Origin: Cirrosporium novae-zelandiae
Lineage: Eukaryota
Assembly: GCA_026023565.1 (NCBI GenBank)
Contig: JAPETS010000003.1
Span: forward strand, 62,001 to 126,000
DNA length: 64,000 nucleotides
Direction of reading: 5' to 3'
Position numbers and translations under genes: made by a program. The notes under the pieces are model-generated. The model had not been told where the DNA came from and made no database searches. It was given only the letters and a program-made list of their open reading frames with translations. How positions within the stretch are numbered: position 1 is the first letter of the stretch; each line of letters starts with the position of its first letter. Positions 1 to 54,384 of the stretch are shown here, piece after piece.

Positions 1-512
1 ATAGTACTATCGGCTCCAGCTTTCATGAGATCCTTATTGTCCTCGAGGGCAAGTGCTGCGACTAATTTATAGACCGAAAGGTCTTGGATACCATTCGTCT
101 TGATGTAACCGACCATGGCGTGAATGAAGGTTGGGTCGTGCTCGTCATTACTCTGTAAACAATCGTTGATTCTTTCCAGATTCTCTCTCTGTTCGTAGGT
201 TTCTTTTGTGATTTTTCCGGCATTTATATCCTCCAGAATCTTTCGGCGCTTAGCCGATACATCATCACCATCATCACTGTCATCACTGTCATCTTCACCT
301 TCGGAACTGCTATCCGAATTATCCTTTTGGTTTTCATGATCATCATTGTTCAGCCTATCGCTTGCCTTTATCTCACTCTTCTTCTCGTGATTAATGGATT
401 TCATTTTAGCTGTTAGATTCTCATTGCCAATTTCACACCGCGAGGTGAGCTGGCGCTGGGTGGATAGCTGTTGAGGTTCGTCTGATCTCATGGTGCTCGG
501 TTTGTAGGTCAT
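1..512 (-). CDS. 5' part of an uncharacterised gene running off the window edge (acidic N-terminus followed by a possible ankyrin-like helix)
   Basis: Open frame from ATG 512 (alternative ATG 404) to the edge: MTYKPSTMRS...MKSINHEKK...SSSEGEDDSDDSDDGDDVSAKRRKILEDINAGKITKE...DPTFIHAMVGYIKTNG...; absent from the ORF track because its stop lies outside the window. The product cannot be identified from this fragment. Confidence 0.6.
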   Translation of the reverse strand, partial: MTYKPSTMRSDEPQQLSTQRQLTSRCEIGNENLTAKMKSINHEKKSEIKASDRLNNDDHENQKDNSDSSSEGEDDSDDSDDGDDVSAKRRKILEDINAGKITKETYEQRENLERINDCLQSNDEHDPTFIHAMVGYIKTNGIQDLSVYKLVAALALEDNKDLMKAGADST

Positions 513-1059
513 GTAAAGATCTAAGTAGTTGAACCTCATGAAATACATATATTCCATCATTCCAAAACAAGGCTGAACAGGTGCAAGGCTGACCTTACCG
601 AGAGAAATTGGAGCCTACCGAACGACAAGCCAGCCACAACACCGTAGCGTCTTACATGCATACTGTGATGGTGTTATTGCATGACCTGTATGCAAAGAAC
701 ATCACATGATGCTCATATACTGCAGTACATTAATGGAACTGCATTATTATCTCGGCCTCGCATTTGCAGGTCCGCTTTTGTTCCCGTGCATGTCCCCCCT
801 GTTCGTTACACATGCGGTGATTATCCAAGGAATCTCATCCCAGCTAATCTTATGCAATAGTTGTTGCTCCGTAATGTCGTGTTGGGGGCCTAATAGGGAC
901 ATGTTGCCGCTTCGGGGGTCCTTGGAAGTTCGCTTCACTGTTCTTGCTTTCTTCAAGTGACTCATCGCAAGAGCGTGCGATTGAAACGAAAAAGAAAGTC
1001 CTACACGTCAACGGAGTTGCTATAGTTTCTTGATATTTTCAGGAAGGTATACTGATCTT

Positions 1060-2024
1060 ATGGATATAGATATGCCTACCGATGAATACACAAATGACAC
1101 AAGAGAAATTTATCTTGAGGAGGAAGGTGACCCGGGCGCAGAATATCATATCAAAAATCAACCGGGTCAACTACAGCGAGAATATGTCACAGACCGCGAC
1201 AACAAGATGCTAATCCAATGCACACTTTCTGCGGTTATACACGGAAATCTTGATTCAAAGTCCGAGGCCCCTGGAACACTCATAGTGTTTGATTTTCGGT
1301 TTTTCCCTAGGGTTCACGGACAGCGGTTCACTCGAGTCGACATCTCAGTTCTTTTCGAAGATGAAAAACGGAGTGAGCGATACTGCCCGGAGGTCAAAGC
1401 TATCGCACCGGATGACTATTTCATTATGCAGGCAACAACAAAGAAGCAAGAGATAAAGCGTCTGGCAGAGGCTGGCATCGATGGCGGGTCTACTGCACCT
1501 GTACATGCAGGCTTCTCATATGAAATCACAGAGTCGATTGAGAAACCCTATTCTATCAAGGTCATTGGCGCTATTAGGTTTTGGAAAGGAAATGGACGGA
1601 ATAAGGTGGAATGGACACTCCTGGAAAACACGTCGCAGCAGAGTGGTGTTCCGACATTTCTCCGCGCAGCAATTCTACTAAGCCGCAAGCACAATTCTAG
1701 CAGACGATTTATTGCTACTGTAGAAATCAAAGCCCAAAGTAACCGACTTTTAGGTATTGGAAACAAGCTTCGAGGGCTAACAGGAAGGATACCAAAGGAT
1801 GATCCCATCATCTTCAGTTCATCGGAGCCGCCTACAACGAATATCTTCGATGCTACAAACCTGGCATCACAATCTCTCAAAGATATCATGGTTGTTCAGT
1901 CATCCAAAGCCATGCCAGATGCGATTGATGGTAAGTCTCCGTCAACATTTCCCATGTAGTTAATGACTTCTTATTAGCCAATGGAAATACTAGCATCCAA
2001 CTGGATAAGGTGGCAGAAACCTAA
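1060..2024 (+). CDS. Uncharacterised beta-rich protein (~305 aa), candidate pore-forming effector
   Basis: ORF 1030..1959 with first ATG at 1060. GTAAGT...TTATTAG intron 1931-1977 gives a last exon ANGNTSIQLDKVAET* (TAA 2022-2024). Strand-like motifs IQCTLSAVIHG, GTLIVFDFRF, RFTRVDISVLFED, VEWTLLEN, GVPTFLRAAILL and DDPIIF. Confidence 0.8.
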
Positions 2025-2168
2025 AGAAATTAGGATTTCTGTAGTGTTTTAGTTAAAAACGATTTGCTAGAAACGCTTTCTCAAAGATTGAAATACACGC
2101 TTGCTTCAACCGTCCATGGGAGAATCAGCTGATGGGTCTGCTTAAATTGTAACTCCTTGCTATGAATC

Positions 2169-5100
2169 CTATATAGATCTCTCCAAGACTACCTCCGAAA
2201 ATAGATGAGCCTGGTGCGTTTCTTTGACAGTATAGAAACACTTGAAGCAATAGTCAAAATTAACACATTCTTCACAACTATACCTGATACCAAAGATTTC
2301 CTGATTCGAATTAGAAAAATGCTCTGGGTGTCATGAAACGGGACTTACACAATAACAACCATCGCAAGAGAATCCATCGTGTATTGATGCCTTCTCAGAA
2401 GGAAGGCTATCGGAGAATTTATCGTCATCTGATTTTCTCTGTAAGAAATTGGCTTTGTTCTGATAAGATAGCCCGGCTATATGCGATTCAAGAAGGCCTT
2501 GAATGGTAGGTTTTCCATGAAAAATGGCAACATGTACTGGTGTCCACCCACGCCGCGTCATATGTCGAGGGTCCGCTCCGTATTTTAACAGGCATTTGAC
2601 GACTTCCTCTGAGTTTTGTCTACACGCCCAATGCAATGGTGTCCAGCCGTCCCCATCTTCGACATCAAGGTCTGTCCTAGTCTCGTGGAGCCGCTTAATT
2701 ACTTCATGTTTACCGCCAGCTGCTGCGAAATGCATGCCTGTCCGACCCTGCTTATCCCTAGATTCGAGGAGGAGTACTGGGTCTTCTTCGCCAGCTATCA
2801 TTTTTATAATGTCCCAGCCACCACTCCATGCAGCCATATGTATGGCAAGACGCCCCTGGAGATCCTTCTGGTCTCTCTGTGGTCCTTTCTCCAATATCAT
2901 TTCCACAATGAGTGAAGACGATCTTGCAGCGGCAGCATGCAAGGCAGTTCCAAACATTCCACCTACAAGATCGAGTTCTGCTTCATCTTCCAGCAATAAT
3001 TTTACCACTTGACCGTTCGAAGACCTGAGTGCCGCCGCCTGTAGTGCCGTAAAGTAACTGCCTCCAGTCTTATTCACATCCGCCAAGTGATCTTTAAGAA
3101 GTAGCTCAACCATCTCTTCCTTGTCACTATATGCCGCCGCCTGCAAGGCTGTTCCATAATTCCCAGCCTCCCAGTTCACATCAACCTTATTACTCAGGAT
3201 AATTTTGACTAGGTCCATATCTCCATCATAAGCTGCTTTGTGAAGGAGAGTGCCATACCATAACGGATCAAAATGAATGCTAGCGCCGGCACCAAGAAGC
3301 AATGTCAGAATCTCTATATGATTATAACGAATTGCTATAATCACTGGAGTTGCCTCACTATTATCAGTAGCGTTTAAGTTAGCATTTCTGTGAATAAGAA
3401 ACTTCACAGCTTCCTTATGACCTCTAGAAACAGCTAGCATAAGGGGCGTCTGGTTTTCCCCATTTTGAACTTCGATATCAGCCCCAGCATCAAGAAGAAG
3501 TGCCATGATGTCCATATAATCTTTTGAAACAGCCTTAGTAAGCGCTGTTTCCCCCTTCTTATTATAAATATCTAGATTAGCCCCACTGTTGATCAGAATT
3601 TGTACAATCTCAAAATGCCCCTTGGATACAGCTCTCATTATTGGAGTACTTCCTTTGTTGTTTGTGGTGTCTTTATTCGCCCCGGCGGTTAATAGCATTT
3701 CCAGAGCTTCTATGCTATTTCGATACGCGGCGTCTGAGAGAGCACTACTATCGGAAGAGTCTCGGAGCTCCATGTCTGCCCTATGTAGTAGCAGTAGTCG
3801 CACAATATTTGTGTTGGAGTTAAACGCTGCCAATTGTAATGGCGTATTTCCATCAACATCCCCATAATTTACATCAGCTCCGACTTTAAGTAGAAATTCA
3901 GCCACTTTTTCGCGATCCCAAATAGCGGCTTTCATCAATGCTCTGTTGAGATATGCGGTAAATGACTCTGGTAGTTCGCGAGATGCAAATTGGACTAGAA
4001 GCTCTACAATTCCTAGGTGTCCATGTTTAGAAGCCACCATTAGCCCTGTTTTGTCTTCAAAATCATCTTTTGCTCCACTTTTAAGAAGAATTTCGATGAT
4101 TCTATAATCGTCGTTTTTCGCAGCAATAGTTAGCGGCGATCGATTACCTGGGAAAGTATTTGGATCCATCCCAGATTTCAGCAGAGCGTGTACAATATCC
4201 GTATATTTCTTTCTTGAAGCAGTTATTAAGATTCCTTCATCGTGGGAGCCGCTTAGCATTAAATATCCCTCACTGCTGAGAATCTCAGAAGCAATGGCTG
4301 GCATGCCATTCTCAACAGCGATCGTGAATGCTGTTTGGTTGGTGTTATCGACCGTGCCGAGATATTCTTGGGTGTTTGGGCGCTCAATTGATCTGTGGAC
4401 TCCTGAGTTTTTCGTATGTTGACCTTCCTGCGCTTCTTGCTCAGGGAACGGCGCTACCAGAAGCTGAGCAGCGTCCTCGCATTTATTTCTAAGTGCAGTT
4501 AATAATGCCGTTTCCTCTCTTGCATTTCTCAACCAGAACTGGGCGTGATTATTAATCAATAATTGTACGAGCCTGGTGTGGCCATTCTTAGCTGCGTAGT
4601 GAAGTGGGGTATATCTTTCTTCATCTTGTGTGTTAATGTCGATATTTTTTTGAATTAGAGTTCTGGAAATCTCATACCATCCATTCATGCAAGCTAGATG
4701 TAGAGGCGAACGACCTTTTAAGTCAACAGCACTAGGAAATCCCCCTGACTCAATGAGAAAGTCCACTACTCCGAGAAATCCGTTTTTGGATGCCATATGG
4801 AGAGGAGTCTCGTTGAATTTGTTGGGGTTGTTTACGGATGCATGGTAAGATATTAGATGTTTTGTTACGGCCAGGTGTCCACGTTCTGATGCAAGGTGCA
4901 AGGGAGTATTATCTTCATTATCTTTCACAGAGGTGGCAGGAGGTCCCATTTTGGTGAAGATGCTCACAATAGATAGATGTCCATACGCAGCAGCGGTCAG
5001 CAGTTCCGTATAGCTATCTTGTGTGTAGCCAGGCTCTTCTCTCCATTGTAGAATAATTCTCTCCACTAGCTTAGCACTTCCATTTACCGTAGCAAAATGA

Positions 5101-8100
5101 ATTAATGAAGGTGCACTTTCGAGTATGAAGTCTCTAGTTGATGCCTCTATCAGCTCCATTGCCACGTCTTCATTGCAAAATTCTGTAGCCTGCAATAGTG
5201 CCGCCCCAATTCCTGCAGAAGTAACTATTTTGCACTTTAAAAGTATGGTTACAGCTTCGATGTGCCCATTCCGCGCTGCCAGCTCTAATGATTGATCGTG
5301 ATCTTTTATCGTGAATTCAAAAGAAGAACATAGCAGTAGTTCCAGGAGTCTAGTCACACCTAGCAGACATGAGATTTGAAGCGGCGATACGGTTGTTACA
5401 CCACATCTTATTTTGCGAATGGGAATGTTTTCTAGCCAGTATTCATCGCTCCATGCTTTCAATAGATCCGCGTTTCTTAGGAATTCCAAAACAGAAAGGT
5501 CATCTTCTAGCGAGTCGTGAGCGAGCATGTAGTGTGCGGGCCAGTTGCGAACAGCATATTGATGCAAAGAGGAGGTAATCAGTCCACAAATTTGACGATC
5601 CCCTTTAGGAATTTCATGTTGATTCACCCCTTTAACAAGCTGCGACTTCTCATTTGATAATGATGCTAAGCAAAATCGAAGGAAAATAGAATAATTCTTT
5701 CCTGGATTCCAATCGAACCCAGAAAAGGCATGGCTTGCGATAAGATTCTTCAGTCGGTCATCGACGAAACTAACTTTTCTGTCCTTGATCTGTAAGACTC
5801 CTGGAAGCGCCTGTCGGATATCCTCTTCGATATCTCTCGGTATGTCATCAGTGGCTAGATCCACGAACTTCTCATTATCTATAGCTGCGGACATGATTGC
5901 AAGCTCGTCGAGCGTTAATAGACGCAGGGCAAAATAGACACATTTTAACACTTTGCAAGTCCAGTCAACTTTACTTTCCAGAAGCTTTTTTAGAACCGCG
6001 GCAGATACATTTTCTGTGTTAGCCATAAGTAAGGAGATTAACTCGGCACGGGTCGCACTAGGGTTGGATCGAACGCTAACAACTTCGAGGTATTTCATGA
6101 GGCACATCGTGCTCACGTAATCTTTAGCGGCTCTGTGAAGCAACCCCTGGAATGGTTCCTGTTGTAATTCATCCAGAGCGGGTTTTGACTTAATGAGACG
6201 GCCTGCATGGGACATGATGACGTTTTGCGCGCAAATCTCTGACTCCGGGCTATCTAAATCGATACAGAGGCATGGTACAACAGCTTTTTTAACTGCATCC
6301 ACATGCTCTTGAAAAGTGATCAGAATTTTGAAAGAAGCCTCACTCGTATCTCTTAAAACTGCTAAGCTCTGCAGGAGCCTATGGTGTGACATGTCGGAAG
6401 CTTGGATACAGCTTATGATACATGTGATGTAAATACCGCTAGGGGAACAAAGTAATGATCGGAGAAGAGTCCATAATTCGAACTCCGTCCAAGTTCCTGT
6501 TTTCTTCATTTGCTGATACAAGTCTCGGACGTGATTGAAAAGGCTTGGCCGTAAGTGCAGTAACTGTCCGGATAACGATGCCAATAAATGCGATACTGTG
6601 TGTCGGATGCCACCCTTTTTATCAAGTGTGGACGATACAACGACATCGTGTGAACTACACTTATTTTCCCGTACCGAGCTCACCAAGAATTGGGAGAGCG
6701 CGGCCGAATCATAAGGCCTCGAACTGCTGAGAAGCAATATATTTGGCAGTACGGCTTCAATCCATGAATTATACGTAGGGTGATCAAGTATCCAGCAAAA
6801 TAGCCCTTCCTGGTCTTTGGGAATGTGTCGAGACACACTAGACTCTGGGTTTCGGTGACATAAAGTCACAACACAATCAACCAGAACCTTATCTGGCCCC
6901 TCCTGAGACATGGTAGAGACGCCATGGAATGCATCAAGTAGGATATCTACTTGCTTAGAGCTGGTGAACTTGGGCATTCCATCGTAACTAGTCTGTAAAC
7001 TAATCCGTTCTTCCAATGAAGCATCGAGAGTAACTGAGTATTTATTGATGACCTACATTGTACAATGTTTAGCAGAGTAAACTATATACAATAGCTCCGA
7101 CCGTAAATAGATAGTGTGACTCCAAGGGACACGAAAAATAATAAAATTTCATATATTAAGGAGAGTTGACTGGTACGTACAACAGGGTAGGCATCATCTA
7201 GGCCTGGTTTTTGGTAGAAATCAATAATTCTGTGATTCTGTGCAACATACTCAAATTCGTCGCAGACTTGAGAAAGATATAGTGAACAGCGCTTGACCGA
7301 GTCGGGGAGCCATCCATCATAAGGACCTGGAACATTCGCTAGTATCAGATTTAATACTATTTTGTCCCAGTCATCGAGTCCACGAGCTCGATGAGGGGTT
7401 CCAAAGAAGACCTAGGTATTAATAATTAACAAAGTTGAATCTAAGTCATTGCAACATCTGTGGGAAATATACCAATAGCCAAATTTTGCTAGCGATTTCT
7501 CGATATTCTGAATCATGTGTAGCGAACAATAGAGCCTGGGCAGAGGTGGAATTAGCAACAGGGCTTTAAAATAAAAATCAAGTTATTACATCGCAAGTAT
7601 TAGTATAAGTACCTGCTGAAGAATGATGCCGCCCACAAAATCTCCAATGAGTATTATGGGACAAATATTTCCATCCTAATTGAAAAAATTCAGTTATCGG
7701 CCCACTAACTCAGATGGTGGGCGTACTGACTATACTAGTGGAAGGATTGTCAATAATCCTTTGAAGTAGCTTAGTTGCAAGTTCTTGAATCATTAGTGCA
7801 GGTGATGGTGATTTCACAATATCGCCGAGTTCATATTTTTCACGGATCATATCTTTATCATTCACCCAGCTAAGCAAATTTGTGTTTTTTGGGTTTATAT
7901 GTGAGGCTCCAGTCACCAGCTGCATTCACAGCAACAACGCTGTTAAGATTAACAGTTGCCTCTAATGAGGTGATCGAGCTGCAGTCTTACCAAGCTTTTG
8001 AAACGATGTTGTCACTGGCTGCACTATCTTTATTATCAGACATTGCCAATTCCTCATCAGCTTCAAGAGCAGATTCTTGCCCGTAATCGTTTTCACTTTC

Positions 8101-8172
8101 AGCAACACTGCTATCTACTTCATCTTCATCACTACTTTCAGCAGAGCTAGCTATGCTTGAACTTGAAGACAT
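2169..8172 (-). CDS. NLR-like protein: degenerate SesB-like alpha/beta-hydrolase, degenerate NACHT, >20 ankyrin repeats, C-terminal ZZ zinc finger (apparent frameshift in exon 2)
   Basis: Reconstructed exons 8172-7991, 7939-7731, 7675-7613, 7535-7473, 7411-7181, 7052-2349 and 2300-2169, all with GT..AG introns. Motifs VVAVNA, PIILIGDFVGGIILQQ, VFFGTPHR, WILDHPTYNSW, YAVRNWPAH, many TPLHxA/YGTALQAAA ankyrins, and CDGC...YSCEECVNFDYCFKC...H..H. Confidence 0.9.
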
Positions 8173-9263: not shown

Positions 9264-10072
9264 TCACCAGGGATACACACCATCCTTATGAACAAATTTA
9301 CCCGCATCCGCATCCCGCTTCCCCTGTATGATACTCAGAAGCGTCTCTCCAGAAATCTTTGGATCCCCCGCGTGGCCCCATCCGCTCCTTGATTCCTCGT
9401 CGTGACCACGAAGATTCGATCGTACGAATCCTGGGCACATGGCGAATACCTTCAGAGGTGTTGAATCGTACACAATTGATTCCTGTAAGGCGATCATGTT
9501 GAGGGCCGCCTTACTTGCACGATAGGCTTCTCCGTTCGCAAGGCTGCGGTATTGTGATGACGTTGGATCGGATGCTCTGGAGAGCGATCCAACACCGCTA
9601 CTCACGTAGATGGAGTATGGCTTTGGGGACTTGAGTAGTAATGGTCTGAAAGCTGCGGAAACCACCGCTGGTCCAACGACGTTGGTGTCCATGGATAGCT
9701 GAAAGCGAGTCTTGACGTTTGGATCTCTGTTGCCGACTGCGGCGTTGTTCACCAGCACGTCCAGCCGTCCAAATTTTTGCTCGACAAGTGCCGCGGCTTG
9801 TTCGACCGAGTTTTCGTCGGTGACATCGAGCTGCACGGGCGACAGATGGCCTTTTATACCAGCGGCCTCGATCTCTGAAATTGCATTTTTTGCTTTTTCG
9901 AGAGTCCGGCTGGCCATGATGACGTGAAAGCTCTCCGATGCGCAGGCTATCACCTTTGCTGCTGCGAACCCCACTCCGGAATTGGCTCCTGTGTTGCTCA
10001 TATTAGCAGATGATTATTTCCAAGTTTATATCTCATATTCTCACCGGTAATGAGGACAATTGTTGAAGACAT
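9264..10072 (-). CDS. Short-chain dehydrogenase/reductase (SDR)
   Basis: Exon 1 MSSTIVLIT (ATG 10072) and intron 9989-10044 give TGANSGVG (TGxxxGxG); LDVLVNNAA; catalytic YRASK; CPGFVRSNL. Confidence 0.95.
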
Positions 10073-11762: not shown

Positions 11763-12995
11763 TTAGCAACCATGAATATGCGCACAAACAGCAAACATCA
11801 TCATCCCAAATTCATCCACCGACTGTACCCATCGATCAATCCTCTTCCGTCGTTCAGGAGAACCAGTCTCTGGTGATCTCCACAACTCCGAGATATAAAG
11901 CTCCTCTCCTTCCCATATTGAGAGATGGTGGTCATATTCTCGTTCCCAGATGCTCCTTGTACAAGCTTCCCATAATACCTTGCTTGCTGGGGCAGGAAGA
12001 CCCCTCAATTCTTCTGCAATATACACAGGGACTGAGTTAACTGTATTGAATATACTGTTGAATAGGTACATAGTATATATAGCACGTCTCTTTGTAGATG
12101 CTACAATCCAGGACTCCCATTGTGGTCGGGAGCGGGAAAGCTCTGCTGCACAGACAAGTCCTGTTGTGGAAACTCGGGAAGCAAGCTCCTGGAGGTGTGC
12201 CATTGTTGTTTGATTGACCAGACCTATTCCTTCTGCGGGTGAGAAAAATGCCATGATGGCATAAATAATAAAAGCTTGAAAGGCGGCCAGAAGTTCCATT
12301 TGGCCGTAAGTTTGATGCTACTAAGGTCAGCTGGGCTCGGAATTCCCGGAGAACTATGAACAGTATACCTCCTCAAGAAGTCTCGCCATCTCTCGCTGTA
12401 CTGTCGCAGTAACTATAGCCTCGCTCCCGGTTTCCCGCCCTTCCCACATCCGAATTAGACTGTAGCAGTTGGCTAGAGGTAGTGGCATCTGTTGACCTTT
12501 GATTTGCAAAGGATGGATTATGGGAGGTAAGCCTCCAGGGCGAAGCATGCATTTCGGATATGTTCTCAAGACACAGGAAAGATATTGTATAGTGTATGGC
12601 TGAAGTGCCTTGGGTCTCTGGTTAGATGAAGGGATAAAGTATTCTAGCCATCGGCTACCGATTTGGGTGCTGTCAGTATTAGAGACTAGATCAATTTTCG
12701 AGAAGTCTGGTCTGATCAATCTGGAATCGGTCTCTTCATTCTGTATACGTGGAGAATTTTGGCTAACAACAGCGTTATTCTGATCAGGTGGACTGGCCAG
12801 CGACGATGGTGACGGTATTCCAAGTTCATTTGTCGGTTGAGGGCTAAAGTTGAAGGTACTCCCTCCAAGGGTAGTGTAACGGCAGTAAAGGTTTCTGAAG
12901 GCGCATCTTGAGCAGGTCGGTCTCTCAAGGTCACACCTAGCCTTTGAATCCGTACATTGTTTGCAGGCTTTCTTTCTAGACGAGGTTCTTTTCAT
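11763..12995 (-). CDS. Zn(II)2Cys6 fungal transcription factor
   Basis: SRKKACKQCTDSKARCDLERPTCSRCAFRNLYCRY binuclear cluster; intron 12318-12368 joins ORFs 12354..12995 and 11763..12299 in frame; C-terminal WESWIVASTKRR region. Confidence 0.92.
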
Positions 12996-13600
12996 TCTGA
13001 ATGTTTTCTCCCGTTCTTCAGTAACGACAGAGTTTATTCCATGAGATGGGGGTTATACGATCATCCGTGATTGAGGCCCAAAGTAAACTTTGGTAAGGCG
13101 AGTGAAGAAGATAATAAATAAACACAAGGTCAATATTCTACAACACCAGTTCTTGTTTATCGTAGTTTATCTTGGTGATAAAATAATTCTGATACTGAAG
13201 TTGAAGCCAACTAGAAAGGCTGGATCTACCCGATGCTCTCTACTACCTAGGTAGGTACTCTACGAGCTTCTTACACTCAAGATGTGGTCCGTGCGGATCA
13301 GGGTTTATACCCTAAAAGATACGCCAATAACCTATTGGGGTATAGCCTGGATACACAACAAATCTACCAAGATATAACGACAACCAGCCAGCCTATACAA
13401 TACACCAGCTCGTTTGATTGAAAATCTATAGCAACAAGTTTGGCCATGTTCTGCATTTAACTTCTACTTCTACTTTCGCTTGATTTTAACCCCAGTTATT
13501 GCATAGCTGTAGCTATGAAGTGGAACAGGGGAAATACAAAAGGGGACTTTTGTGGGCTGATTCAAGGATTGCAAGAGCTAAGACGACTGTACTGAATTTG

Positions 13601-13720: not shown

Positions 13721-13843
13721 TCATAAAGTCCCTGAGATATAATCAATGAATAGCAAGTATGCCCTTCAGCAATAGATTATAAAAAAATAAAGAATTTCAT
13801 GCTCATTGAAATAATGAATTAATATCTACACTTCATTTTCAAA

Positions 13844-15373
13844 ATGGCTGGGAACGATGTCAAGCAGGAAGGCTCAAATCAGCATGAGTGCTCAACCATC
13901 GACCCAGTTCAACTTCCATACAGCATCTTCACCTCTCGCCAAAAAGCCCTTATTGTTGCGATTATTTCTACCGCCGCAATGTTTTCTGGCTTCGCATCCA
14001 ACATTTACTTCCCTGCCATCCCAACAATTGCATCCGATCTTTCAGTGTCAACCGAGCTTATCAACCTTACCGTTACGTCGTACATGATCTTTCAGGGCCT
14101 CTCCCCCACTCTCTGGGGCGCCCTTGCAGACTTCCAGGGTCGTAGGATCACATATATTTGTACTCTTCTCATCTTTTTTGGTGCCTGTGTTGGTCTAGCA
14201 GAGACAAAATATTTTTATCAGCTCTTGATATTAAGATGTCTGCAGAGCACAGGAAGCGCCAGCACGATTGCCATTGGTGCAGGTGTGATGGGAGACATTA
14301 CCACACGCGACGAGAGAGGTGGATATATGGGGGTATTCGGGGCTGGATTGTTAGTACCCTTAGCCGTTGGACCGGTTCTCGGAGGGGTTTTTGCAGGAAC
14401 AATTGGGTGGAGGGCCATCTTCTGGTTCCTAGCGATTTTCAGTGGGGCATTTCTTATCATCCTCATTATATTCCTACCAGAAACACTGCGCTCTCATGTC
14501 GGTAACGGCTCTCTCCCTGCCAAGGGGCTTGCAAAATCCCCTCTAGCCTATATCCAACGACGCCGCCATCATTCCAAAACCAGCATTGCACCACCCTCCT
14601 TACCCCTCTACAGCAAAAAACCGAAACCCAAACTCGATTTTTTAGCCCCCCTCCGGGTCCTAACCGGCAAATCAGTCATCAGCGCCATTCTATTCCTCTC
14701 TATCTATTACGCTGTCTGGCAAATGACCGTCACGGCCCTCTCCACCCTCTTCAAGCGCACCTACCACCTCACAGAAATCCAAATCGGACTCACTTTCATT
14801 GCCAACGGCGTCGGCTGCATAATCGGTACTCTCACCAACGGCAGATTCCTAGATATTTCTTACCGCCGCCTCAAGCGCCAGTGGGAATCCGAACTTACGG
14901 GTCAGGAAGACCCCTTGTCATCATCTTCTTCTTCTTTCCCTCTTGAGCGCGCCCGCCTAGGCACCCTCTGGTATTGGAGTGCCCTCCAGTGCATCGCCGT
15001 CTTAATTTTTGGCTGGACCCTCGATCAGCGAGTTCACATCGCAGTCCCCATCATCTGTACCTTCGTACTCGGATGGACAGCCATTTCGCTCCAAAACGCC
15101 GTCACGACTTATCTGGTAGACGTCTTCCCCACTCGTGGCGCGAGTGCCAGTGCAGCGTTGAATCTAGCTCGATGTCTGATGGGGGCTGGTGGCACCGCAG
15201 CAATTATGCCGATTACAAATGCGTTAGGCGTGGGGTGGTGCTTTACAATGTGGACGGGGGTCATGTTGTTAGCGTTAGGGTTGCTGAAGGTTCAGATGAG
15301 ATGGGGTCCTAGGTGGAGGAGGGAAATAGAGGAGAAGGAAAAGGGGGGCCGTACAAATGATGGTGGGGATTGA
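13844..15373 (+). CDS. MFS drug:H+ antiporter (DHA1 family, QDR-like)
   Basis: 509-aa intronless ORF with ~12 hydrophobic segments; PYSIFT, SNIYFPAIP, WGALADFQGRR, ERGGYMG, GWRAIFWFL, FLPETLR and PLERARL motifs. Confidence 0.95.
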   Translation: MAGNDVKQEGSNQHECSTIDPVQLPYSIFTSRQKALIVAIISTAAMFSGFASNIYFPAIPTIASDLSVSTELINLTVTSYMIFQGLSPTLWGALADFQGRRITYICTLLIFFGACVGLAETKYFYQLLILRCLQSTGSASTIAIGAGVMGDITTRDERGGYMGVFGAGLLVPLAVGPVLGGVFAGTIGWRAIFWFLAIFSGAFLIILIIFLPETLRSHVGNGSLPAKGLAKSPLAYIQRRRHHSKTSIAPPSLPLYSKKPKPKLDFLAPLRVLTGKSVISAILFLSIYYAVWQMTVTALSTLFKRTYHLTEIQIGLTFIANGVGCIIGTLTNGRFLDISYRRLKRQWESELTGQEDPLSSSSSSFPLERARLGTLWYWSALQCIAVLIFGWTLDQRVHIAVPIICTFVLGWTAISLQNAVTTYLVDVFPTRGASASAALNLARCLMGAGGTAAIMPITNALGVGWCFTMWTGVMLLALGLLKVQMRWGPRWRREIEEKEKGGRTNDGGD

Positions 15374-17814: not shown

Positions 17815-18976
17815 ATGGCAGCAGCACCAAACACCCTCCACTACGTACGTACAATCCCTTCCCCCCCCCCTCCCTCCTCATTCACCCCCTCATTCACTCC
17901 CCCATTGACATTCCCAAAAGACCCTCATCGACGCCATGACCTCAACCCCCTTCACCGGAAACCCCACTCCCGTATTTATTCTCGACGATGGTGAAAATAC
18001 ATGTGAAAATTGGTTAGGAAGTGATGTTATGCAAAAGCTTGCTGGGTATGCAACCACCACCATATTTTTTGTAATTCTGTTTTTTTGTTTTGTTTTTTGG
18101 TGAGAGGAGAGGGGGCAGAATGGAAGCTAAAAAAAAAGGGGAAATTTTTTTTAAAGGGAAATGAATCATTCTGAAACGGCTTTTGTGCGACGACGACAAC
18201 GAGCGGGGGGAGATGATGATGGAAATGTGGTATATGATATTCGATGGTACACCCCCACGGCTGAGGAGCCGTTCTGCGGACATGGGATCCTAGCAGCAAC
18301 GATCGCATTGCACGAGCGGTATGGAGAGAAGAAAAATTATAGATTTGAAACAGTTAAGGGGGCTTTGGTTGATGCTCATGTCGTTTCTTCCTCTTCTTCT
18401 TCTTCTCCCAACCCCACCACCACCTACACAATCCAAATGACATTCCCCTCATTCCCCATCACAACTCCCCTATCCTCCCCCTCCACAAAAACGAAATTCG
18501 CAACCGCCCTAAACATCAAACCCTCGGCGATCGTAGCAATCGGGAAAAACGAATTGCAGGATTTAATTATCGAGCTGGATAAGGGGGTTGATTTTTCGGA
18601 TGGGAGGATGCGGATTGATGCGGGGAAATTGCTGGAGGCGAGTCCGAAAGAAGTGAGGAGTCAGGTTGTTACGAGGGCTGTTACTGGAAAGGGGTTTGAG
18701 AAGAGGGTTTTTGCGTATGGGAGTGAGGATCAGGCTACTGGGTCGACGTATTGTGCGTTGGGTCCGTATTGGGGGGATAGGCTTGGGAGGAGAGAGGCGT
18801 TGAGGGCGGTGCAGGTTTCTAGGAGGGGTGGGGGGGCGGAGGTGGAGTGTTATGGTGTGGGTGGTGATGGTGGGGGGGAGGTTATTGGGGTAAAGGCGGA
18901 TGGGGTTGTGGTTGGTTTCGGGGATATTGTTTTACCGGTTGGTGAGGGAGAGAGGAAGCTGTTGGCGAAGCTTTAG
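17815..18976 (+). CDS. PhzF/PhzC-like (diaminopimelate epimerase fold) isomerase
   Basis: Introns 17845-17920 and 18046-18156 give MAAAPNTLHY-TLIDAMTSTPFTGNPTPVF...MQKLAGEMNHSETAFV...IRWYTPTAEEPFCGHGILAA...EDQATGS. Confidence 0.88.
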
Positions 18977-22651: not shown

Positions 22652-25600
22652 TTATCTCCCAGATAATCCATCTAAACTCCTCATACCCTTCCACCCTGGC
22701 GTTTCCATCCCTGGTTCCCTGACTCCGACTTCCATTCCACACTTAGCGCATACCAGCCTCAACCCCCCAACCGCTACACTAGCTCTTTTATCCGCACTAG
22801 GTCTCCAATTCTTCCCCTGTTGTTGTGCTCTAAACTTTTTGCTTCCACAACGCCGACATCGTTCACCGTCTTGGTCATCTGGATCCACATCCCCGTCTAT
22901 GCTCCCGCCTTGAGGAGTCATGGCTAATGGTGTGGCAATGTCTGTCCCCTGGCTCCTGTCGTCGCTGTCTCTCCTTTCCATTCGCCATCTGCGTTCATCT
23001 TCATACTCTTCCTCAGATGTAAGGCGAGAAACATATGACTCGTTCCTTTGGTTAAGCCATCGATTGTGGGAGTCCGATGCTATGGTACTGTTCGATAGGA
23101 TAGAGATAATAGAGGGTCGTGATTGAAGAGTGTGTACCTGTTGTTCTTGTTGTAAGTTTGTTATAGGGCTCTCGCCGCCATCAGCCTGATTGTTTGGTAG
23201 ACTGTTGGATGAATTCGTGCGCATGAGGGCCGATGCTTGATTAGCGTAGGCAGCGCGGTTCCAGAATAGGTTTGATTGATCGCCGGAGAGCATTAGGGGA
23301 TTAGAAGGGTCTGCTGATGTCAAGACAGACTTGGGAGGGGACTGGGGGCTGTTAGTTGACGGTACAGTCGGGGGTATTATAGCTGCTAGAGGAAGTGATG
23401 GAGGGGGCCCTGTTGGGGTTGAATCAGGTGGACTTGGAGAGGGATCGTGAATTCGTATGTCAGGTTTTACGAGGGAAGTATTAATGGCGGTGTTGACTCG
23501 CCTTGGAGACCGATTTGGTCGTGTAGGTAGTGTGGGAGAAAGAGGTGAAAACGGCCCTATTGAAAGGCCGGGACTTTGCGGAAAGGTTTGTACGCGGGAA
23601 GACCTCCCGAGGGAGCTGGAATTTGAGCGGGATGGCAGTTGGGACATCGATTTGCTGGGTGAGACACTTCGGTAACGGGGGTGCGATGTGGAGGTTCTTC
23701 CATCTAAACTATTGACTGGGCTCGAAATATGAATGGAATTTCGCCACGAGAGAACACGTTCCGGTCCTTTATTAGAGATGGAATCTCGGCTCCGACGTGT
23801 CGACACCGAACCTGTTCTACCAAGAATTTTTCTCGAAAAACTGGAATGAGTATCCCACGATTCATGACGACGTTTCGCATATGCACAGTCCTGCCGGAAG
23901 ACTTTGATTTTGCCAGTATAGTCTGCTGTGACAACAATGTTCCCAGATTTGTGAGCGGAACGGGCGATGTAGGCCGGAGTTTTTGTGGGTTCGCCCGACT
24001 TGAACTCTGGAAATGGAGAGGGCAAATCGCTATCATTATCCATGGCTAGATTTTCATTTATTGGTTTTTCGCTCATCGGCGTAGAGGAAGCTTGAGAACT
24101 ACGGTCACTTCGGCTCACCAGAGTTACCGGGGGAGGGTTGCAAAGGTCAAATATAGGATCGCCAGAAGCTCCGAGGAGTCGCTTGGTCGCAGTCGGGGCA
24201 AGAACAGCCGTTGTGACGATGTCGGAATGAGCCTCAAACATTTCGTGGGATCTCTTGTCTTTATCTTGATTTACCTTGGTCTCCACTGGCCAGATGTAAA
24301 CTTTTCGATCTTCACTTCCGCAGATAACATATCGAGCATCATCGCTGAAGCTAGCATGTATCTGGCTGCAATTGTTTTCATGTCCTTTGAACTTAATATC
24401 GAGGGTCCGGCTGTTGAAGTCGTACATGCGTATTCGCGAATCGTTACTGGTGATAAGAAGCTTGATATCCCCATTCGGATTGTCGGGGGGGAAATTTATA
24501 GCTTCAATTCCTGTAATCTTGCTACCCTTGGAATTTTTCCCATAAGCAGATCGAACTTGAAGGACAGCTTGCTGTTTCAATCCTTGAGTTTCATAAAAGA
24601 TACATTGTCCACTATAGGTCCCAGCGATGGCAGTTTTTCCATCTGGAGTCAAGGCAACAGCGGTAATCATATTACCAGGTATGTGTGTCCAAAAAGAAAC
24701 CTCTTTATCGACAATGCTCCAGAACCGCAACTTTGAATCAAGAGACCCAGCCAAGAAAAACCGATCATCAAGAGGATGAAATTGAACTGATGGCACAAAA
24801 TCACTATGCTTGAAGACACAAAGACATTCCAACCGGCTGACATGCCATAAGCGAACAGTTTTGTCCATTGACGAAGATAGGAGAAAATTATTTTTGCTCC
24901 AGCTAAGGTCAAGTATGCTAGCCGTATGAGCAATGTACTCCCTTACCGGTGCCTTTTTGAATACAGGCGCACTAAGTCGCTCACCTTCTCGATCCGAGGC
25001 ATCTTCTTGGCTTTCGTGTACATGGCGGTCCTCTGACGTTGCAAGGACTGCCCAGACTCGGACAAACCTGTCTTGGCCTCCAGCGGCCAAATATTTTCCG
25101 TCAACGGAGAACTTGAGGGCCCATATTGCGTGTGCCTTCTTTGAATGGATCTTGTTGGCACCGGCATGGCCATCATGCGATGTATTCGGTAACCCAGTCT
25201 TAGTATTAGGTTTCCCGTCTAGTTCCTGCGCCAAAAAAAGTCGATTGAAATCTTTCTCTTTCTTGTTGTGAGAATTAACTTTGACATATTTTGGCGGAGA
25301 AGGGAATTGTGGAATAAATCCTATCGGTTGTGAAAAAACATCTGCGTTCATTCCTTCAATCCTCTTCTCGCCCAACTCGGAATCATCATCATTGAATTCG
25401 ACAACATCCTTCTTCTTGCTGGGTTTCAATCGCCCTAATATGGAGACACGTTTCCTATAACCAGATGGTCGTCAGCTTCCGATCCACTAGAGCATACATA
25501 GACGTAGCGCGTCCGTAATTGGTTTGGATACATGAACCCCAGGGATTATGCGCCCCACCAATAAACTTGTCCGCATTTGAAGATTCCCGGATATAAGAAA

Positions 25601-29795: not shown

Positions 29796-30341
29796 TCAAG
29801 ATAAAAGCTTCCTCGTACGGTCTGCAGCAATATCACACATGGCCTTGATAGCTTCCGCTCTCTCAAGCATAATGTCGCCACGAGCGATCCTAGCACGCAT
29901 GTTCTGCATTATCTCTGGTCTGCCTCTACCATTCACAAAGACAACATAACGAAGCCCAGGAAAGGCCTGCTCGTAGTCGGCATTCAATTGAGCTAGCTGC
30001 GCAGCTTCCTCTTCTCCACCCGTATTAAGCCGCGCCTGTTCCTGTCTACTCTGAGAACTTTCGACTTTCTTTTGTCCTAGCCTCGGATGTGCGCCCAGGA
30101 TTTTATCTAACCATTCGGTGTCGCTGGTGGAAGGAGATTCAGATAGTCCAGTCAGCTGCAGGCCAACGGAAGCGATGAGGTCATGATAAGAAGTAAAAGT
30201 CTTTTCTTGCAGTAAGCTCACGGAGAGCGTATGTAATGGCACGCATGGTTCGAAGAGGAGGTCCAGTACGGCAGCTCGGTCGAGAGTAGAAAGCTGAGAA
30301 AGAGAGGAAATATCCGGCAGAGAGGGATTGACCATGGCCAT
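29796..30341 (-). CDS. OHCU decarboxylase (purine/urate catabolism)
   Basis: 181 aa; LDLLFEP, ILGAHPRLG, SSQSRQEQA, LNADYEQAFPGLRYVVFVNGR and AMCDIAADR motifs. Confidence 0.92.
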   Translation of the reverse strand: MAMVNPSLPDISSLSQLSTLDRAAVLDLLFEPCVPLHTLSVSLLQEKTFTSYHDLIASVGLQLTGLSESPSTSDTEWLDKILGAHPRLGQKKVESSQSRQEQARLNTGGEEEAAQLAQLNADYEQAFPGLRYVVFVNGRGRPEIMQNMRARIARGDIMLERAEAIKAMCDIAADRTRKLLS

Positions 30342-31104
30342 ATTGCTTGTGATTGTTTTCAGCGAATAATCAGATATCGGCTATACGTCCACGATAATAG
30401 ACGGGCATAAAGTATAGTTACTCACCGAAGTTAGAAATAGGTCATAGATGTCATGATAAAGTGTATAAATTGTACTTTATACAGTAGAAGCTTATATTAT
30501 GAGACATCCTGGAGTTGTTCGACTCTTTTACTTAGGCCTGACCAATTTCGTACTGCGGCCCCGGATCTGACCCTAAGTTTGAACCGAAGTCGAGGGCGAT
30601 TGTGTTGATTGAAGCTTAGTACCCAACAAACGGGGAAACATGGCCAGTTTATCCTTGCAGACAAAGTCCAACTCTTTCTACTTTCTACACTTAATTGTCC
30701 AACTGTCTAACTAAAAAGTAATGGGCTCTAGATCGACATTAAATACAAGACACCTCCCGAAACAGTTACGCCAGAGCCTAAAACTAAAGTCCTTCAAGGG
30801 TCAAACTCCCTTTCTAACTAACTGGCACCACAGGCAATTATTGTTCATACCAAATATTACCTTCTTTGACCTTTGTTTACCACACAAACTTATTGGACCA
30901 GTTCCACCTTTGCACATGGGCTGCCATGCTGCAACACCATGTCCAGTTCTTGTTGACGGCCATTCACCGTTATCGCAAACGCCTTGAACTCACCTTTTAC
31001 CCCTGAAGTCCCGCGCTTATTCGCCCAGGCTGACCAGGGGTCTTTATCTCATCCCCCCCTCATCCTTCTGAGAGAAGAAGGATTTTGGGAAGAATTCAAA
31101 GGCA

Positions 31105-37341: not shown

Positions 37342-38613
37342 CTACTCTCGTCTTGCGGTTTCCTCGTCGGCGCCCCAGAATACCACATCGCGTTCTGCTG
37401 TCGCAATGAGGTGCCACCGGGGATTGCACGCCACGAGATCCACCCGTCCTGCCTGTCCATGTCCAGCCAAAACATGTGTTGGCATTATGAGTTGGTTGGG
37501 GGTGGTGAGAACACTGGGGTCGGTGTCGTAGATGGCGAGGCCAGAGTTTGGGTCCTCAGAGCCGGTGCTGCTGACGACGAAGCGGCCGTCAGATGTAAAA
37601 CAGGCGTCTGTTTGACCCAACGGGCGAGATGTGTCTGAGACGTACCCCGGTGGATTGCGACGGGTTGCCGAGAGGGAAGCTTTTGCAGGATGGGGGTAGT
37701 TGGGGCGGGAGAGAAAGCCTTTTAATTCTCCATCAAAGGCATCGAGAAGGTAGTGGCCTGTTCCTGTTGTGGAAAGTAAGATTGATTTGCCGTCGTTGGC
37801 GAATTCTAGACCGCTCCAATTGAGATGTGTGTTGTCGTGTGGGATATGTTGAGCTTCAATTGGTGCAAGGTCAAAGGCATGGAAGGGAATTTGGTCTAGG
37901 TAACGGCTGTCGTAGAGGATGATGGAGGAGGTCGAGGGTGATGCGATGGCTACTACGAAGCCTGTTGGGTCGTATGCACATAGATAGGGTGTCTCCATTT
38001 GTAGTTGGAATCTGGCATGTGGAGTATGCAAGTCCCAATATCGAACCGTGTTATCTTCTCCACAGCTTACGAAGGCGTCGCTTCTTGGGCTCAATGCAAT
38101 ATCCGTGACCTGACCTGTGTGACCTGCAAAGTAATTGATGTATGCATTATCATGAGTGGAAAGATGACGGATGGCATGATCGTTCTTGGTGGAAGCGTAA
38201 ATGCAGGTCGTAGGTGTATGGGTGAAACGGGCAAGATGGCAGCCATATTTTTGTGAGAAGAGCGTGTTTGTATGTTTGCCACTAGTTGCAGAGTAGATCT
38301 GGAGCGTGGAGTCGGAACGGGAGGTGAGGAGAAATTCACCCGAGTCGTCAAAATCAAGGGAGAGAGTATGATGGGATGGGGAGGACGAGGAAGAAGGCTT
38401 TTCGGTATCGTTGGTTGTTGCGTCTCGAAACCGCTAGATGTGAATGTGTTATTTGAGCATACTATTTCTTTTCTTCTTGGGAGGAGCTTTAGAAACTACC
38501 TTTGTTGCAGTATATGAATATATCAACTCGGACGTTTTCCTTGCTAGTGGTTCACGAGGAGGTTTGTGTTCCTCGGAGGAGGGAATGACTGGGTTTTCGG
38601 CTGGTACAGCCAT
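37342..38613 (-). CDS. SWD2: WD40 subunit of COMPASS/CPF (Swd2/WDR82)
   Basis: Exon 1 from ATG 38613 and one intron, then SLDFDDSGEFL...LFSQKYGCHLARFTH...IYASTKNDHAIRHLSTHDNAYINYFAGHTGQV...SPRSDAFVSCGEDNTVRYWDL...FANDGKSILL...LLDAFDG. Confidence 0.88.
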
Positions 38614-39170: not shown

Positions 39171-40408
39171 ATGGCGACGACTACAGGGTAAATATTTAAT
39201 TTCTGAGTATTCAACTTGTATGAAAAGTTGATGGCTAATCTCATGTTTCCAGTGCCTTCGTTGCGGGTGGTATCGCAGCTTGTGGTGCCGTGACAGCAAC
39301 CCATCCTTTTGAGACGGTAAAGATTCGGTGTGTCTACCTGTTTCACAGAAGCCCTTGGGGTGAATTCTCTAACAATATTTTTCTATCCGTAGTCTTCAAC
39401 TCCAAGGTGAACTTCAAGCGAAATCTCAAGCCCCTAAGCTTTATCGCGGTGTTATCCATGGTGTAACTACCATCATCCAGCATGAAGGTCTTCGGGGAAT
39501 TTATCGCGGTCTCGGTACAGCCTATATTTATCAAGTCCTCCTCAACGGCTGTCGACTAGGGTTTTACGAACCACTGCGCGGCTTTCTCACCACGTCAATA
39601 TATAAGGATGCAAAAGTTCAGAGTCTGGGAATAAATGTGTTTAGCGGAGCTGCAAGTGGGATCCTGGGTGCTATGGCGGGCTCACCGTTTTTCCTCGTGA
39701 AGACGAGACTACAATCATTCTCTCCTTTTGCGCCCGTGGGGACGCAGCATAAGTACCGCAACGCGTTCGACGGTCTTCGAGACATTTACCGCAAGGAGGG
39801 CCCGAAAGGGTGGTATAGAGGTGTCAGTGCTGCTATGGTGCGAACAGGATTTGGAAGCTCGGTACAATTACCAACATATTTCTTTGCGAAGAGGAGGCTC
39901 GTCAGACATTTGGGAATGGACGAGGGCCCAGCGTTGCATCTAGCAAGTAGTACGGCTAGTGGATTTGTTGTTTGCTGCATTATGCATCCTCCTGGTAAGC
40001 ATTAATCCTTGTTCCTAACTTGGTCTCCCTAGAGAATGCCCACTAACTTTGAATCTTTGCTTAGACACAATCATGTCACGAATGTATAACCAAACTGGAA
40101 ATCTCTATAAAGGAATCTGGGACTGTTTCTATAAAACGATTACAAGAGAAGGAGTGCTCGCTCTTTATAAGGGATACTTTGCCCATCTGGCAAGGATTCT
40201 ACCACATACGGTATGGCCCCTTTGTATCCGCTCTTCCCCATTGCTCTCAAGAGCGAAGAAAGATGTTTCAATAAGATCAAGAAACAAAAACTAACCTCGA
40301 CTTGCGAAAATATAGATCCTCACCCTAAGTTTAGCCGAGCAGACGAACAAGTTAATGCGCAAATTTGAAGATCGCGTCTTACCAGACACCTTCAAAGCCA
40401 AAATATAG
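39171..40408 (+). CDS. OAC1: Mitochondrial oxaloacetate/sulfate carrier
   Basis: Five exons: MATTT/GAFVAGGIAACGAVTATHPFETVKIR/LQLQGEL...YQVLLNGCRLGFYEP...GSPFFLVKTRLQS...RTGFGSSVQLPTY...MHPP/DTIMSRMYNQ...ARILPHT/ILTLSLAEQ; Px[DE]xx[KR] carrier signatures. Confidence 0.93.
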
Positions 40409-53283: not shown

Positions 53284-54384
53284 CTACGTTTTCGCTGGTG
53301 TGTTGCTAACGAACACTACCAGTACAGCAGCATATCTGTTTGATCATCGGCCACCCCGAGTTCAATATTATTATGTAGGTTCAGAGGCAATAAAAAAAAT
53401 GGGGTCGATACGCAGCGGTGGACCCAAATATCTCGGCCCTCCTTGCATTAGTGAGCAATCCCACAACCACCGCAAATAAACATATGAAGAGGACAATCAT
53501 CCCAACACATAGCCCGCGGCTACGATCCGATATCTGAAGGAGACACACTATGGCACCGATGAGTAGGATAGCACTCGGAAATATCGAAATGATAGCGCCT
53601 ACACGACGAACGCGGCGGGCGGGGAAATAGAAAAGGTCGTCGTTGGAAGGGATATCCGTACGTTTTTCCTATATAAAAAATGGCTTTGTGTTAGGTCTGT
53701 ACACCTCTGCGAGAGTATAGTCTCATAGCTCACCTTAAGGAACCATCCAAGATATCTTTCTATGAAGATGTTGAGTCGATCGGAATCAGCGGCAGCAAGA
53801 GTGACAAGGTCATTCTCATCATCAAAAAGAACTCTATCTCGATTTCACAGGACAGGCACGCCTTTTGAAGTGTACCACTTTCTAAATGCTCTCAATTTCC
53901 GGGAAGTTGGGTTTTTAAGAGCAAGCACTTGACTCTCGAGCACTAATGCCTCATCTAGAGAAGTCTAGTCAACAGCATTGTCCATGTGCAAAGTCCCATG
54001 CTCCCCTAGAATGAGAAACGAACGGTATTCCTTGAGTTTGACCCTAATTTCCCCCTGAAGCTCTCTGTGTCTGTTGGCCGTCTTGTTTGAGTTATCGCAA
54101 TAATCTCGCCAGCATCTTGCTACCTTCTGCACCTCTTCATTACCCCTATTCTTCGCATCTTCTTGGTCAAGGGTTTGCAGTTGGGCTTCGAGTTTGTGGA
54201 TCTCGCTTTGTAGGTAAAGTAGGTTTCTGGCACTTAAATTCTCGAATTTGCGATATATTGCTGCATCGGCATCCCTTGCGATAAAATCCGATAATGACGG
54301 GTACCCATCAACCGCGGTTGGGGGAGAGGGGCTACCGTTGGTTGTGGCAGACAGCTCAATGTCTGTATCTCCAGAAGTTGACAT
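53284..54384 (-). pseudogene. DUF6594-family membrane protein gene with one in-frame TGA
   Basis: Four exons: DGYPSLSDFIARD..IYRKFENLSARNLLYLQSEI / EALVLE...PVL*NRD..FDDENDLVTL / three TM segments ending TNARRAEIFGSTA / AYAAVLVVFVS. Premature TGA at 53845-53847. Confidence 0.85.

Follow-up and report, generated by a model that had tools for sequence, protein, structure and literature searches.

What does a small gene without known domains do when it lies tail to tail with a large gene that resembles a fungal NOD-like receptor (NLR) but has lost its enzymatic motifs? This question was raised by a locus of Cirrosporium novae-zelandiae which occupies positions 1 to 8,172 of a 64,000-nucleotide stretch of DNA (contig JAPETS010000003.1, positions 62,001 to 126,000 of the forward strand; the whole stretch is called the window below). 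A reading made from the sequence alone had proposed a three-gene cell-death/immunity module at this place, with an activator (gene 1), a pore-former-like executioner (gene 2) and a pseudo-enzymatic NLR acting as sensor or scaffold (gene 3). Our computational analysis leads us to favour a smaller unit. We think it somewhat probable that genes 2 and 3 form a two-gene cell-death/immunity pair, and in other filamentous ascomycetes the same architecture is annotated as one protein, of which the pair would be the split form. In this pair gene 2 is predicted, from its structural model, to encode a cytosolic protein with the cap-and-stem fold of the α-hemolysin/leukocidin β-barrel pore formers.

Organization of the locus

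All three reading frames were verified in 1..8172 of the window, and the gene models used throughout were the following.

3..491, minus strand: gene 1, N-terminal 163 codons (open frame 3..614, continuing past the left edge of the window)
492..1059, no strand: intergenic region between the divergent genes 1 and 2
1060..1959, plus strand: gene 2, unspliced model of 299 aa, predicted cytosolic protein with an α-hemolysin-like β fold
1060-1930 and 1978-2024, plus strand: gene 2, alternative model with a 47-nt intron at 1931-1977 (GTAAGT..TTAG)
2169..7925, minus strand: gene 3, frameshift-free model with exons 7925-7731, 7675-7613, 7535-7473, 7411-7181, 7052-2349 and 2300-2169

Gene 1 has in-frame ATGs at 560, 512 and 491, and 547-568 bp separate its start from that of gene 2, in agreement with the divergent layout and the distance of ~550 bp given by the sequence-only reading. 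The segment between them is presumed to be a shared promoter region. The stop codon of gene 2 falls at 1957-1959 in the unspliced model and at 2022-2024 in the spliced one, the latter being the model that underlies the database protein P0002. The stop codon of gene 3 was located at 2171-2169, and the two genes converge with 144 bp between their stops when gene 2 is spliced or 209 bp when it is not; the earlier figure of ~145 bp for this convergence therefore corresponds to the spliced version. Read from ATG 7925, gene 3 consists of six exons encoding 1795 aa with zero internal stops, and all five of its introns (55, 77, 61, 128 and 48 nt) follow the GT..AG rule.

Predicted structure of the gene 2 protein

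The structure of the gene 2 protein was predicted with AlphaFold from a 113-sequence alignment, and an all-β model was obtained with a predicted local distance difference test score (pLDDT) of 85.2 and a predicted template modelling score of 0.79. When the model was compared with the PDB using Foldseek, all matches listed were pore toxins of the α-hemolysin/leukocidin family, the best with an E-value of 6.3e-6 and a probability of 1.00. The template modelling scores against these toxins were low (0.2-0.3) because the positions of the stems differ. The model comprised both a cap β-sandwich and a stem hairpin, the two parts of the α-hemolysin/leukocidin fold. The description of gene 2 as pore-former-like is thus borne out on the predicted model by matches which, among those listed in the structure searches, all belonged to the α-hemolysin family. 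Its description as a non-gasdermin protein also agrees with our data, since no Pfam match was obtained and no gasdermin occurred among the structure matches listed, families beyond those listed not being excluded. Two parts of the protein were of particular concern.

1414..1578, plus strand: long β-hairpin of gene 2, residues 119-173 (strands 119-139 and 151-173 in the AlphaFold model)
1783..1914, plus strand: conserved C-terminal tail of gene 2, residues 242-285 (G-R-I-P-K-D-D-P..F-D-P .. N-L-G .. L)

Across the 113 sequences the tip of the hairpin (residues ~135-153) contained 25% glycine vs 6% elsewhere and 10% charged residues vs 26-27%. Hydrophobic and small residues alternated over residues 136-154 throughout the family, with position 154 being mostly Trp. 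The hairpin is therefore put forward as a candidate membrane-spanning stem. In the tail, the conserved columns were G242, D248, P249, F252, L268 and L273. A loop of low confidence (residues 234-241, pLDDT <50) precedes it, residues 250-280 were modelled with a pLDDT of 97-98 and packed on the body, and residues 278-289 fell in the predicted self-interface. By direct reading of the sequence, the N-terminus is acidic and has neither a hydrophobic stretch nor a signal peptide. Together with the position of the same domain in front of cytosolic NLR-like domains in fused relatives (see below), this points to a cytosolic or otherwise intracellular protein.

In order to describe self-association, three copies of gene 2 were predicted together without an alignment, and the trimer scored 0.52 vs 0.32 for the best of three controls. 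The mark applied here for self-association was reached by 21 of 30 one-chain-pair structures and by 0 of 23 single-chain structures in its calibration. The trimer runs showed contact agreement of at least 86% with a partner pLDDT of at least 75. The predicted interface was head-to-tail, and copy 3 engaged both faces, as a ring requires.

The same results could be explained if gene 2 were a non-lytic β-sandwich binding or adaptor domain, such as a bait, a decoy or a ligand-binding module, carried on an NLR-like scaffold and resembling hemolysin only by a shared arrangement; a number of observations speak for this and against a pore former. Generic β-sandwich proteins (adhesins, cohesins and pilins) scored only ~2 Z units below the toxins, although it was the toxin family that headed three separate structure searches, and the matches including the stem spanned 178-194 residues. 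The period-2 hydrophobic alternation of the hairpin was moderate (1.4-2.1, against up to 2.8 in the core strands), and the extended hairpin drawn by AlphaFold may be an artefact; its tip nevertheless has a glycine content four times that of the remaining protein and few charged residues across the whole alignment. The head-to-tail self-interface would not be anticipated from an adaptor, but the trimer score barely reached the mark (+0.20), the mark had been calibrated on two copies and not three, and the score may be due to solved hemolysin rings that the model had memorized. No similarity in sequence was found between gene 2 and any toxin: a search of the 113-sequence profile against PDB sequences gave zero matches at E<=1, 111 of the 113 aligned members had no Pfam match, and the other two had one stray, unrelated match each. 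A tie between the two families at the level of sequence is accordingly not apparent. PMC9815663 describes the N-terminal domains of fungal NLRs as typically being effectors, which is where relatives of gene 2 are found in the fused proteins. Taking these points together we judge the adaptor explanation unlikely, and gene 2 is treated below as a candidate pore former.

The gene 2 family in filamentous ascomycetes

The gene 2 product was 97% identical to P0002, an annotated protein from a Cirrosporium novae-zelandiae metagenome-assembled genome, and the two differ only by gene model, that is, by a start at the second Met and by the 47-nt intron near the end. To collect relatives, an exhaustive HMMER search was run against 1.84 billion cluster representatives; 619 sequences were obtained at E<=0.001, 320 at 1e-10 and 22 at 1e-30, giving a family of at least 619 clusters at 50% identity. 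Most relatives were of similar size (250-349 aa in 130 of 158). All members with a named organism came from filamentous ascomycetes, with the genera Cirrosporium, Glutinoglossum, Trichoglossum, Melanomma, Alternaria, Hypoxylon, Hypomontagnella, Diaporthe, Sporothrix, Colletotrichum, Trichoderma, Talaromyces and Botrytis represented. Their proteins were mostly named 'hypothetical', 'uncharacterized' or 'unnamed', and the long fusion proteins bore automatic names (Protein SSH4, Ankyrin-3, Peptidase S8/S53 domain-containing protein). Gene 2 itself matched zero Pfam families at E<=0.01, zero NCBIfam and zero PADLOC entries. A search for prokaryote relatives with a 6-sequence alignment and two peptide patterns found none, this being a weak test which does not imply absence from bacteria.

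Several further features were noted within the family. P0004 is a paralogue of gene 2 (45% identity, 277 aa) which lies on another contig of apparently the same Cirrosporium genome. A C-terminal motif, E-T-x-R-L-L-L-H-A-V-R-K-G-V-E-V, was common to P0035, P0047, P0131, P0025 and P0075 (411-459 aa). Alanine-rich helical repeats (A-A-E-A-A-x-K-A-A) followed the conserved tail in five members, including P0103, P0104, P0106 and P0159, and a similar alanine-rich stretch links the hemolysin-like and hydrolase-like domains of the long relative P0136. Such C-terminal extensions of the longer relatives may be subfamily-specific signalling or anchoring elements. In P0116 and P0118, weak DUF6594-like C-termini were seen below the cut-off.

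Linkage of the gene 2 family to NLR-like and S8 genes

Only four of the 150 listed relatives exceeded 700 aa; three of these contained ankyrin repeats (two of them with NPHP3_N as well) and one contained Peptidase_S8. A fifth long relative, P0162, was the only one returned by a profile search for longer relatives, which missed P0140 and is thus unfit for counting fusions. The domain content of the five proteins according to Pfam was as follows.

P0014, Glutinoglossum americanum, 2023 aa: NPHP3_N and ankyrin
P0143, Talaromyces marneffei, 2243 aa: NPHP3_N, ankyrin and SPRY
P0136, Trichoderma sp., 2102 aa: ankyrin
P0140, Colletotrichum spinosum, 792 aa: Peptidase_S8 (E = 2e-18)
P0162, Botrytis sinoallii, 1376 aa: NPHP3_N and ankyrin (the fifth long relative)

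The gene 2 domain was N-terminal in all five. Gene 3 could be aligned with P0014 over 1440 residues at 30% identity (E = 3e-143), beginning in the NACHT-like part and extending as far as the first cysteines of the ZZ finger, so that P0014 holds in one annotated protein what the window holds in two genes. Between its gene-2-like and NACHT-like domains, P0014 carries a hydrolase-like domain with the motifs I-V-A-V-H-G-L and V-F-F-G-T-P-H-R and the elbow G-V-D-I-G-G. This segment gave zero matches in Pfam and in PDB sequences, but the language-model-based Atlas assigned it to DUF676 clusters with a score of 0.96, the ten best matches all being DUF676. P0143 ends in SPRY (E = 5.4e-22, residues 2066-2170) instead of ZZ, which suggests that lineages differ in the presumed sensing end of the scaffold.

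Genomic neighbours were also inspected at three metagenome loci of the family, which had been found with the 6-sequence alignment and of which two showed a neighbour. On L002, a homologue of gene 2 was convergent with a C-terminus of the ankyrin/ZZ type that shares 38% identity (E = 4e-32) with the very end of gene 3, and the layout of the window was thus repeated on an independent contig. On L003, the homologue was convergent with an S8 protease gene (Peptidase_S8, E = 1.1e-11). When 119 sequences were placed in a quick maximum-likelihood tree, the NLR-linked members (six) and the S8-linked members (two) were scattered, with both kinds on either side of the deepest split.

Genes of the gene 2 and gene 3 types are physically linked in five fungal classes, either fused or adjacent, and the tie of gene 2 to an ankyrin/ZZ NLR-like gene expected by the sequence-only reading was found in four annotated fusions as well as on L002. 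Gene 2 and gene 3 are therefore well supported as a pair. The strength of this linkage is tempered by the neighbours being visible at just two unannotated loci, and by P0162 and P0014 each standing beside a stand-alone protein of ~290 aa on the tree. The 'fusions' may represent neighbouring genes merged in annotation, in which case adjacency would be proven and a single polypeptide would not. A link of gene 2 homologues to S8 proteases, which the same reading had put forward, was seen in the annotated fusion P0140 and in the convergent pair of L003; the head-to-head layout and the ankyrin repeats it had attributed to the protease were found in neither.

Domains and lost motifs of gene 3

The domains of gene 3 were assigned as listed here.

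2169..2366, minus strand: ZZ zinc finger, interrupted by the 48-nt intron 2348-2301 (last exon, E = 2.1e-7)
2523..5315, minus strand: ankyrin-repeat region (Ank_2, E = 2.3e-142, 14 stretches)
6315..6797, minus strand: NACHT-like (NPHP3_N) domain by Pfam, without Walker A and with a weakened Walker B
7181..7925, minus strand: degenerate DUF676/sesB-like α/β-hydrolase-like domain, placed by flanking motifs and a DUF676 lead from the relative P0014
7926..8172, minus strand: upstream remnant from ATG 8172, with an acidic, serine-rich exon at 8172-7991

The match to NPHP3_N (E = 4.3e-9; 37.2 bits, the cut-off being 24.8; residues 86-246 of the open reading frame), together with the Pfam matches to ankyrin and ZZ, agrees with the NLR-like, ankyrin/ZZ identity first given to this gene. 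The Cys/His pattern of the ZZ finger is complete in the spliced product. The assignment of the hydrolase-like domain to DUF676/sesB rests on the flanking motifs and on the Atlas lead for P0014. Of these motifs, V-F-F-G-T-P-H-R was found at 7411; we take it to flank the active site in canonical sesB-like hydrolases. The elbow at ~7660 reads G-D-F-V-G-G, where a canonical nucleophile elbow would presumably read G-H-S-L-G-G.

To see whether catalytic motifs might be present elsewhere, the whole 1795-aa product was scanned. Zero G-x4-G-K-[ST], zero copies of its relaxed form and zero GK[ST] were found, and G-x-S-x-G was likewise not found, the nucleophile serine having been lost. The strict Walker A pattern was also missing from P0014, P0136, P0143 and P0162, and the elbows of these four long ankyrin relatives were all without serine (G-V-D-I-G, G-H-G-F-G, G-R-G-I-G and A-H-N-T-G). 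The term 'pseudo-enzymatic' used for the NLR-like gene hence applies to gene 3 and to four of four fused relatives. As both losses are common to gene 3 and the four relatives, they are old, which speaks for a maintained scaffold rather than recent decay. As part of the pair reading, and with the same measured leaning, we propose that gene 3 descends from a common fungal NLR of the sesB-like/NACHT/ankyrin type which lost the lipase nucleophile and the P-loop and carries a C-terminal ZZ finger.

The 5′ end of gene 3 was less regular. From ATG 8172, exon 8172-7991 leads through a 51-nt intron to the in-frame sequence V-V-A-V-N-A-A-G-D-W, which looks like the first strand and the H-G motif of a sesB-like hydrolase. 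This frame ends after six consecutive A near 7880; the downstream part of gene 3 is one base out of frame with it. An independent assembly of the probable source sequencing run was identical at the break, with ~360x depth and zero indels, and the frame break is thus a feature of the DNA itself, not an error of assembly. As a detail of that assembly, its contigs break at 7081-7110 of the window, overlapping by 30 bases, and one of them has a 19-base loose end there which we assume to be library adaptor.

The confirmed frame break raises the question of whether the locus is a relic, in which gene 3 would be a pseudogene and the pair would no longer work in the Cirrosporium genome. Gene 3 may indeed be decaying here: its upstream exon is out of frame in the DNA itself, and erosion of its hydrolase-like domain has gone further than in the relatives, the first half being barely recognisable when set against P0014. 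By our reading of the sequences, the Walker B aspartate kept in P0014 has also been lost. Yet 1795 stop-free codons and five clean introns follow from ATG 7925, which is unlikely in decaying DNA, and Walker A and the nucleophile are also missing from the relatives in Glutinoglossum, Talaromyces, Botrytis and Trichoderma, so that these losses are old and have been kept. Gene 2 is moreover intact. A relic locus is for these reasons considered quite improbable, and the reading of genes 2 and 3 as a pair is retained.

Gene 1 and the proposed triad

The activator assigned to this locus by the sequence-only reading was gene 1, seen as an ankyrin and subtilisin protease whose catalytic part would lie left of the window, which would cleave and activate gene 2, with gene 3 as sensor or scaffold. 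The 163 residues of gene 1 available consist of an acidic, serine-rich low-complexity stretch followed by ~85 residues without a match. No Pfam match, no Atlas match and no homologue among proteins of 287-2000 aa were obtained for them. BLASTP against the P0140 and L003 proteases was not significant (best E-values 1.1 and 0.069, the latter within the low-complexity stretch). The contig of the source run reaches 1901 bases further left than the window, and gene 1 may simply be short.

The divergent position of gene 1 at 547-568 bp from gene 2 fits an activator, and the S8 domains of P0140 (E = 2e-18) and L003 (E = 1.1e-11) do tie two gene 2 relatives to this kind of protease; these two cases, however, were fused or convergent and never head-to-head, and neither protease contained ankyrin repeats. 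In the model of gene 2, the low-confidence loop and the conserved packed tail could act as a cleavable inhibitor, and fungal gasdermins are described as being regulated by such cleavage in PMC8851545. Against this, the 163 residues of gene 1 showed no significant similarity to either of the two S8-linked proteins, nor did Pfam reveal an S8 or CHAT domain in the 23 frames scanned of the 30 frames of at least 130 codons located at 9.2-63.7 kb in the window. From these 163 residues the role of activator was accordingly not upheld for gene 1, and the evidence favours the two-gene pair of genes 2 and 3 over a triad, which was not demonstrated. We regard the triad as very improbable.

Proposed mechanism of the gene 2-gene 3 pair

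On the reading of genes 2 and 3 as a pair, a mechanism can be outlined in which membrane insertion, cell death, the identity of the sensing component and any cleavage are steps that we infer. The ankyrin/ZZ part of gene 3 would sense a cue, upon which the gene 3 scaffold would gather or release gene 2 protomers. The protomers would assemble side by side into a ring, and their glycine-rich hairpins would insert into a membrane of the very fungal cell that makes them, in the manner of gasdermin or HeLo proteins. Elsewhere in the gene 2 family a subtilisin might serve as the controller, possibly by cleavage in the loop that precedes the conserved C-terminal tail. More tentatively, and as a possibility to which we would give rather less than even weight, filamentous ascomycetes may possess a third class of self-directed pore-forming executioner next to HeLo/MLKL-like proteins and gasdermins, made of an intracellular α-hemolysin fold and controlled either by a dead NLR-derived scaffold, fused or adjacent to it, or by subtilisins.

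Comparison with known systems

From the α-hemolysin/leukocidin toxins (Hla, gamma-hemolysin, NetB/NetF, CytK and the Vibrio cholerae cytolysin core) gene 2 differs first in having no detectable sequence similarity to them. The toxins are secreted, whereas gene 2 lacks a signal peptide by eye and appears intracellular; its core is smaller, with ~220 residues aligned, and it has a conserved C-terminal tail of its own. The toxins are bacterial, and the gene 2 family is fungal and linked to NLR-like or S8 genes.

Among fungal systems, the HET-Q1/HET-Q2 gasdermin clusters are similar in placing a small cytosolic candidate pore former beside, or fused to, a multidomain sensor, as described in PMC8851545 and PMC12881547. 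Some HET-Q2-like sensors are NLR-like, and the S8 protease sensor of HET-Q2-like clusters recalls that of some gene 2 relatives. Unlike HET-Q1, gene 2 had no gasdermin match in Pfam or among the structure matches listed, and unlike HET-Q2, its partner in the window is neither a protease nor equipped with a working NTPase motif. The pairs of NWD2/HET-S and of NLRs with HeLo or HeLo-like proteins resemble our locus in that an executioner gene adjoins an NLR gene and that the effector domain also occurs N-terminally in NLR-like proteins. The HeLo/MLKL-like effector is a helical bundle, whereas that of gene 2 is all-β, and gene 3 has no P-loop. No amyloid motif common to the gene 2 tail and the gene 3 N-terminus was seen by eye, no motif model having been run.

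The sesB-like, T-NACHT and ankyrin domains are named among the commonest domains of Sordariales NLRs in PMC12258605. Gene 3 shares with NLRs of this composition the domain order, the V-H-G-L-x-G motif (in its relatives), the F-F-G-T-P-H-R motif and the matches to NPHP3_N and ankyrin. It departs from them, as do its four fused relatives, in having neither the nucleophile serine nor Walker A; a C-terminal ZZ finger is added on gene 3, and a hemolysin-like domain stands in front or next door.

The executioners linked to NLRs or proteases in fungi, as given in PMC12881547, PMC9815663 and PMC12258605, are HeLo-type helical proteins and gasdermins. A full-text literature search, which did not extend to the supplements of PMC8851545 and PMC9815663, yielded no description of a hemolysin-like or leukocidin-like domain in fungal NLRs or fungal cell death; those supplements (neighbour lists and unannotated N-terminal clusters) might hold the gene 2 family under a cluster number. 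In the fungal paper PMC7414189, leukocidins occur, in the text accessible, only as an analogy for gasdermin heteromers. The predicted fold of the gene 2 family and its position beside, or fused to, a dead-motif partner suggest that it is a cell-death executioner not described so far. If this is true, a hemolysin-fold family under the same types of controller would be a new effector class beyond HeLo and gasdermin, and a classic fold of secreted bacterial toxins would also serve regulated cell death inside a eukaryote. The presence of an NLR derivative without P-loop and without nucleophile serine across several fungal classes further poses the question of how it could switch without nucleotide exchange.

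Remaining genes of the window

Beyond the locus, Pfam identified the following neighbours of an ordinary kind in the window.

9267-10013, minus strand: short-chain dehydrogenase
12357-13052, minus strand: Zn2Cys6 regulator
13823-15370, plus strand: major facilitator superfamily (MFS) transporter
18155-18973, plus strand: PhzF-like protein
29799-30380, minus strand: OHCU decarboxylase
39373-40002, plus strand: mitochondrial carrier
46547-48169, minus strand: aspartyl protease, the sole protease among the frames scanned at 9.2-63.7 kb

Four frames of a non-self-recognition type were also observed, all on the minus strand, at 58765-61548, 22655-25471, 37345-38433 and 53968-54441; between them they comprise a HET domain (E = 3.2e-8), two WD40-repeat frames and a DUF6594 (E = 5.9e-22).

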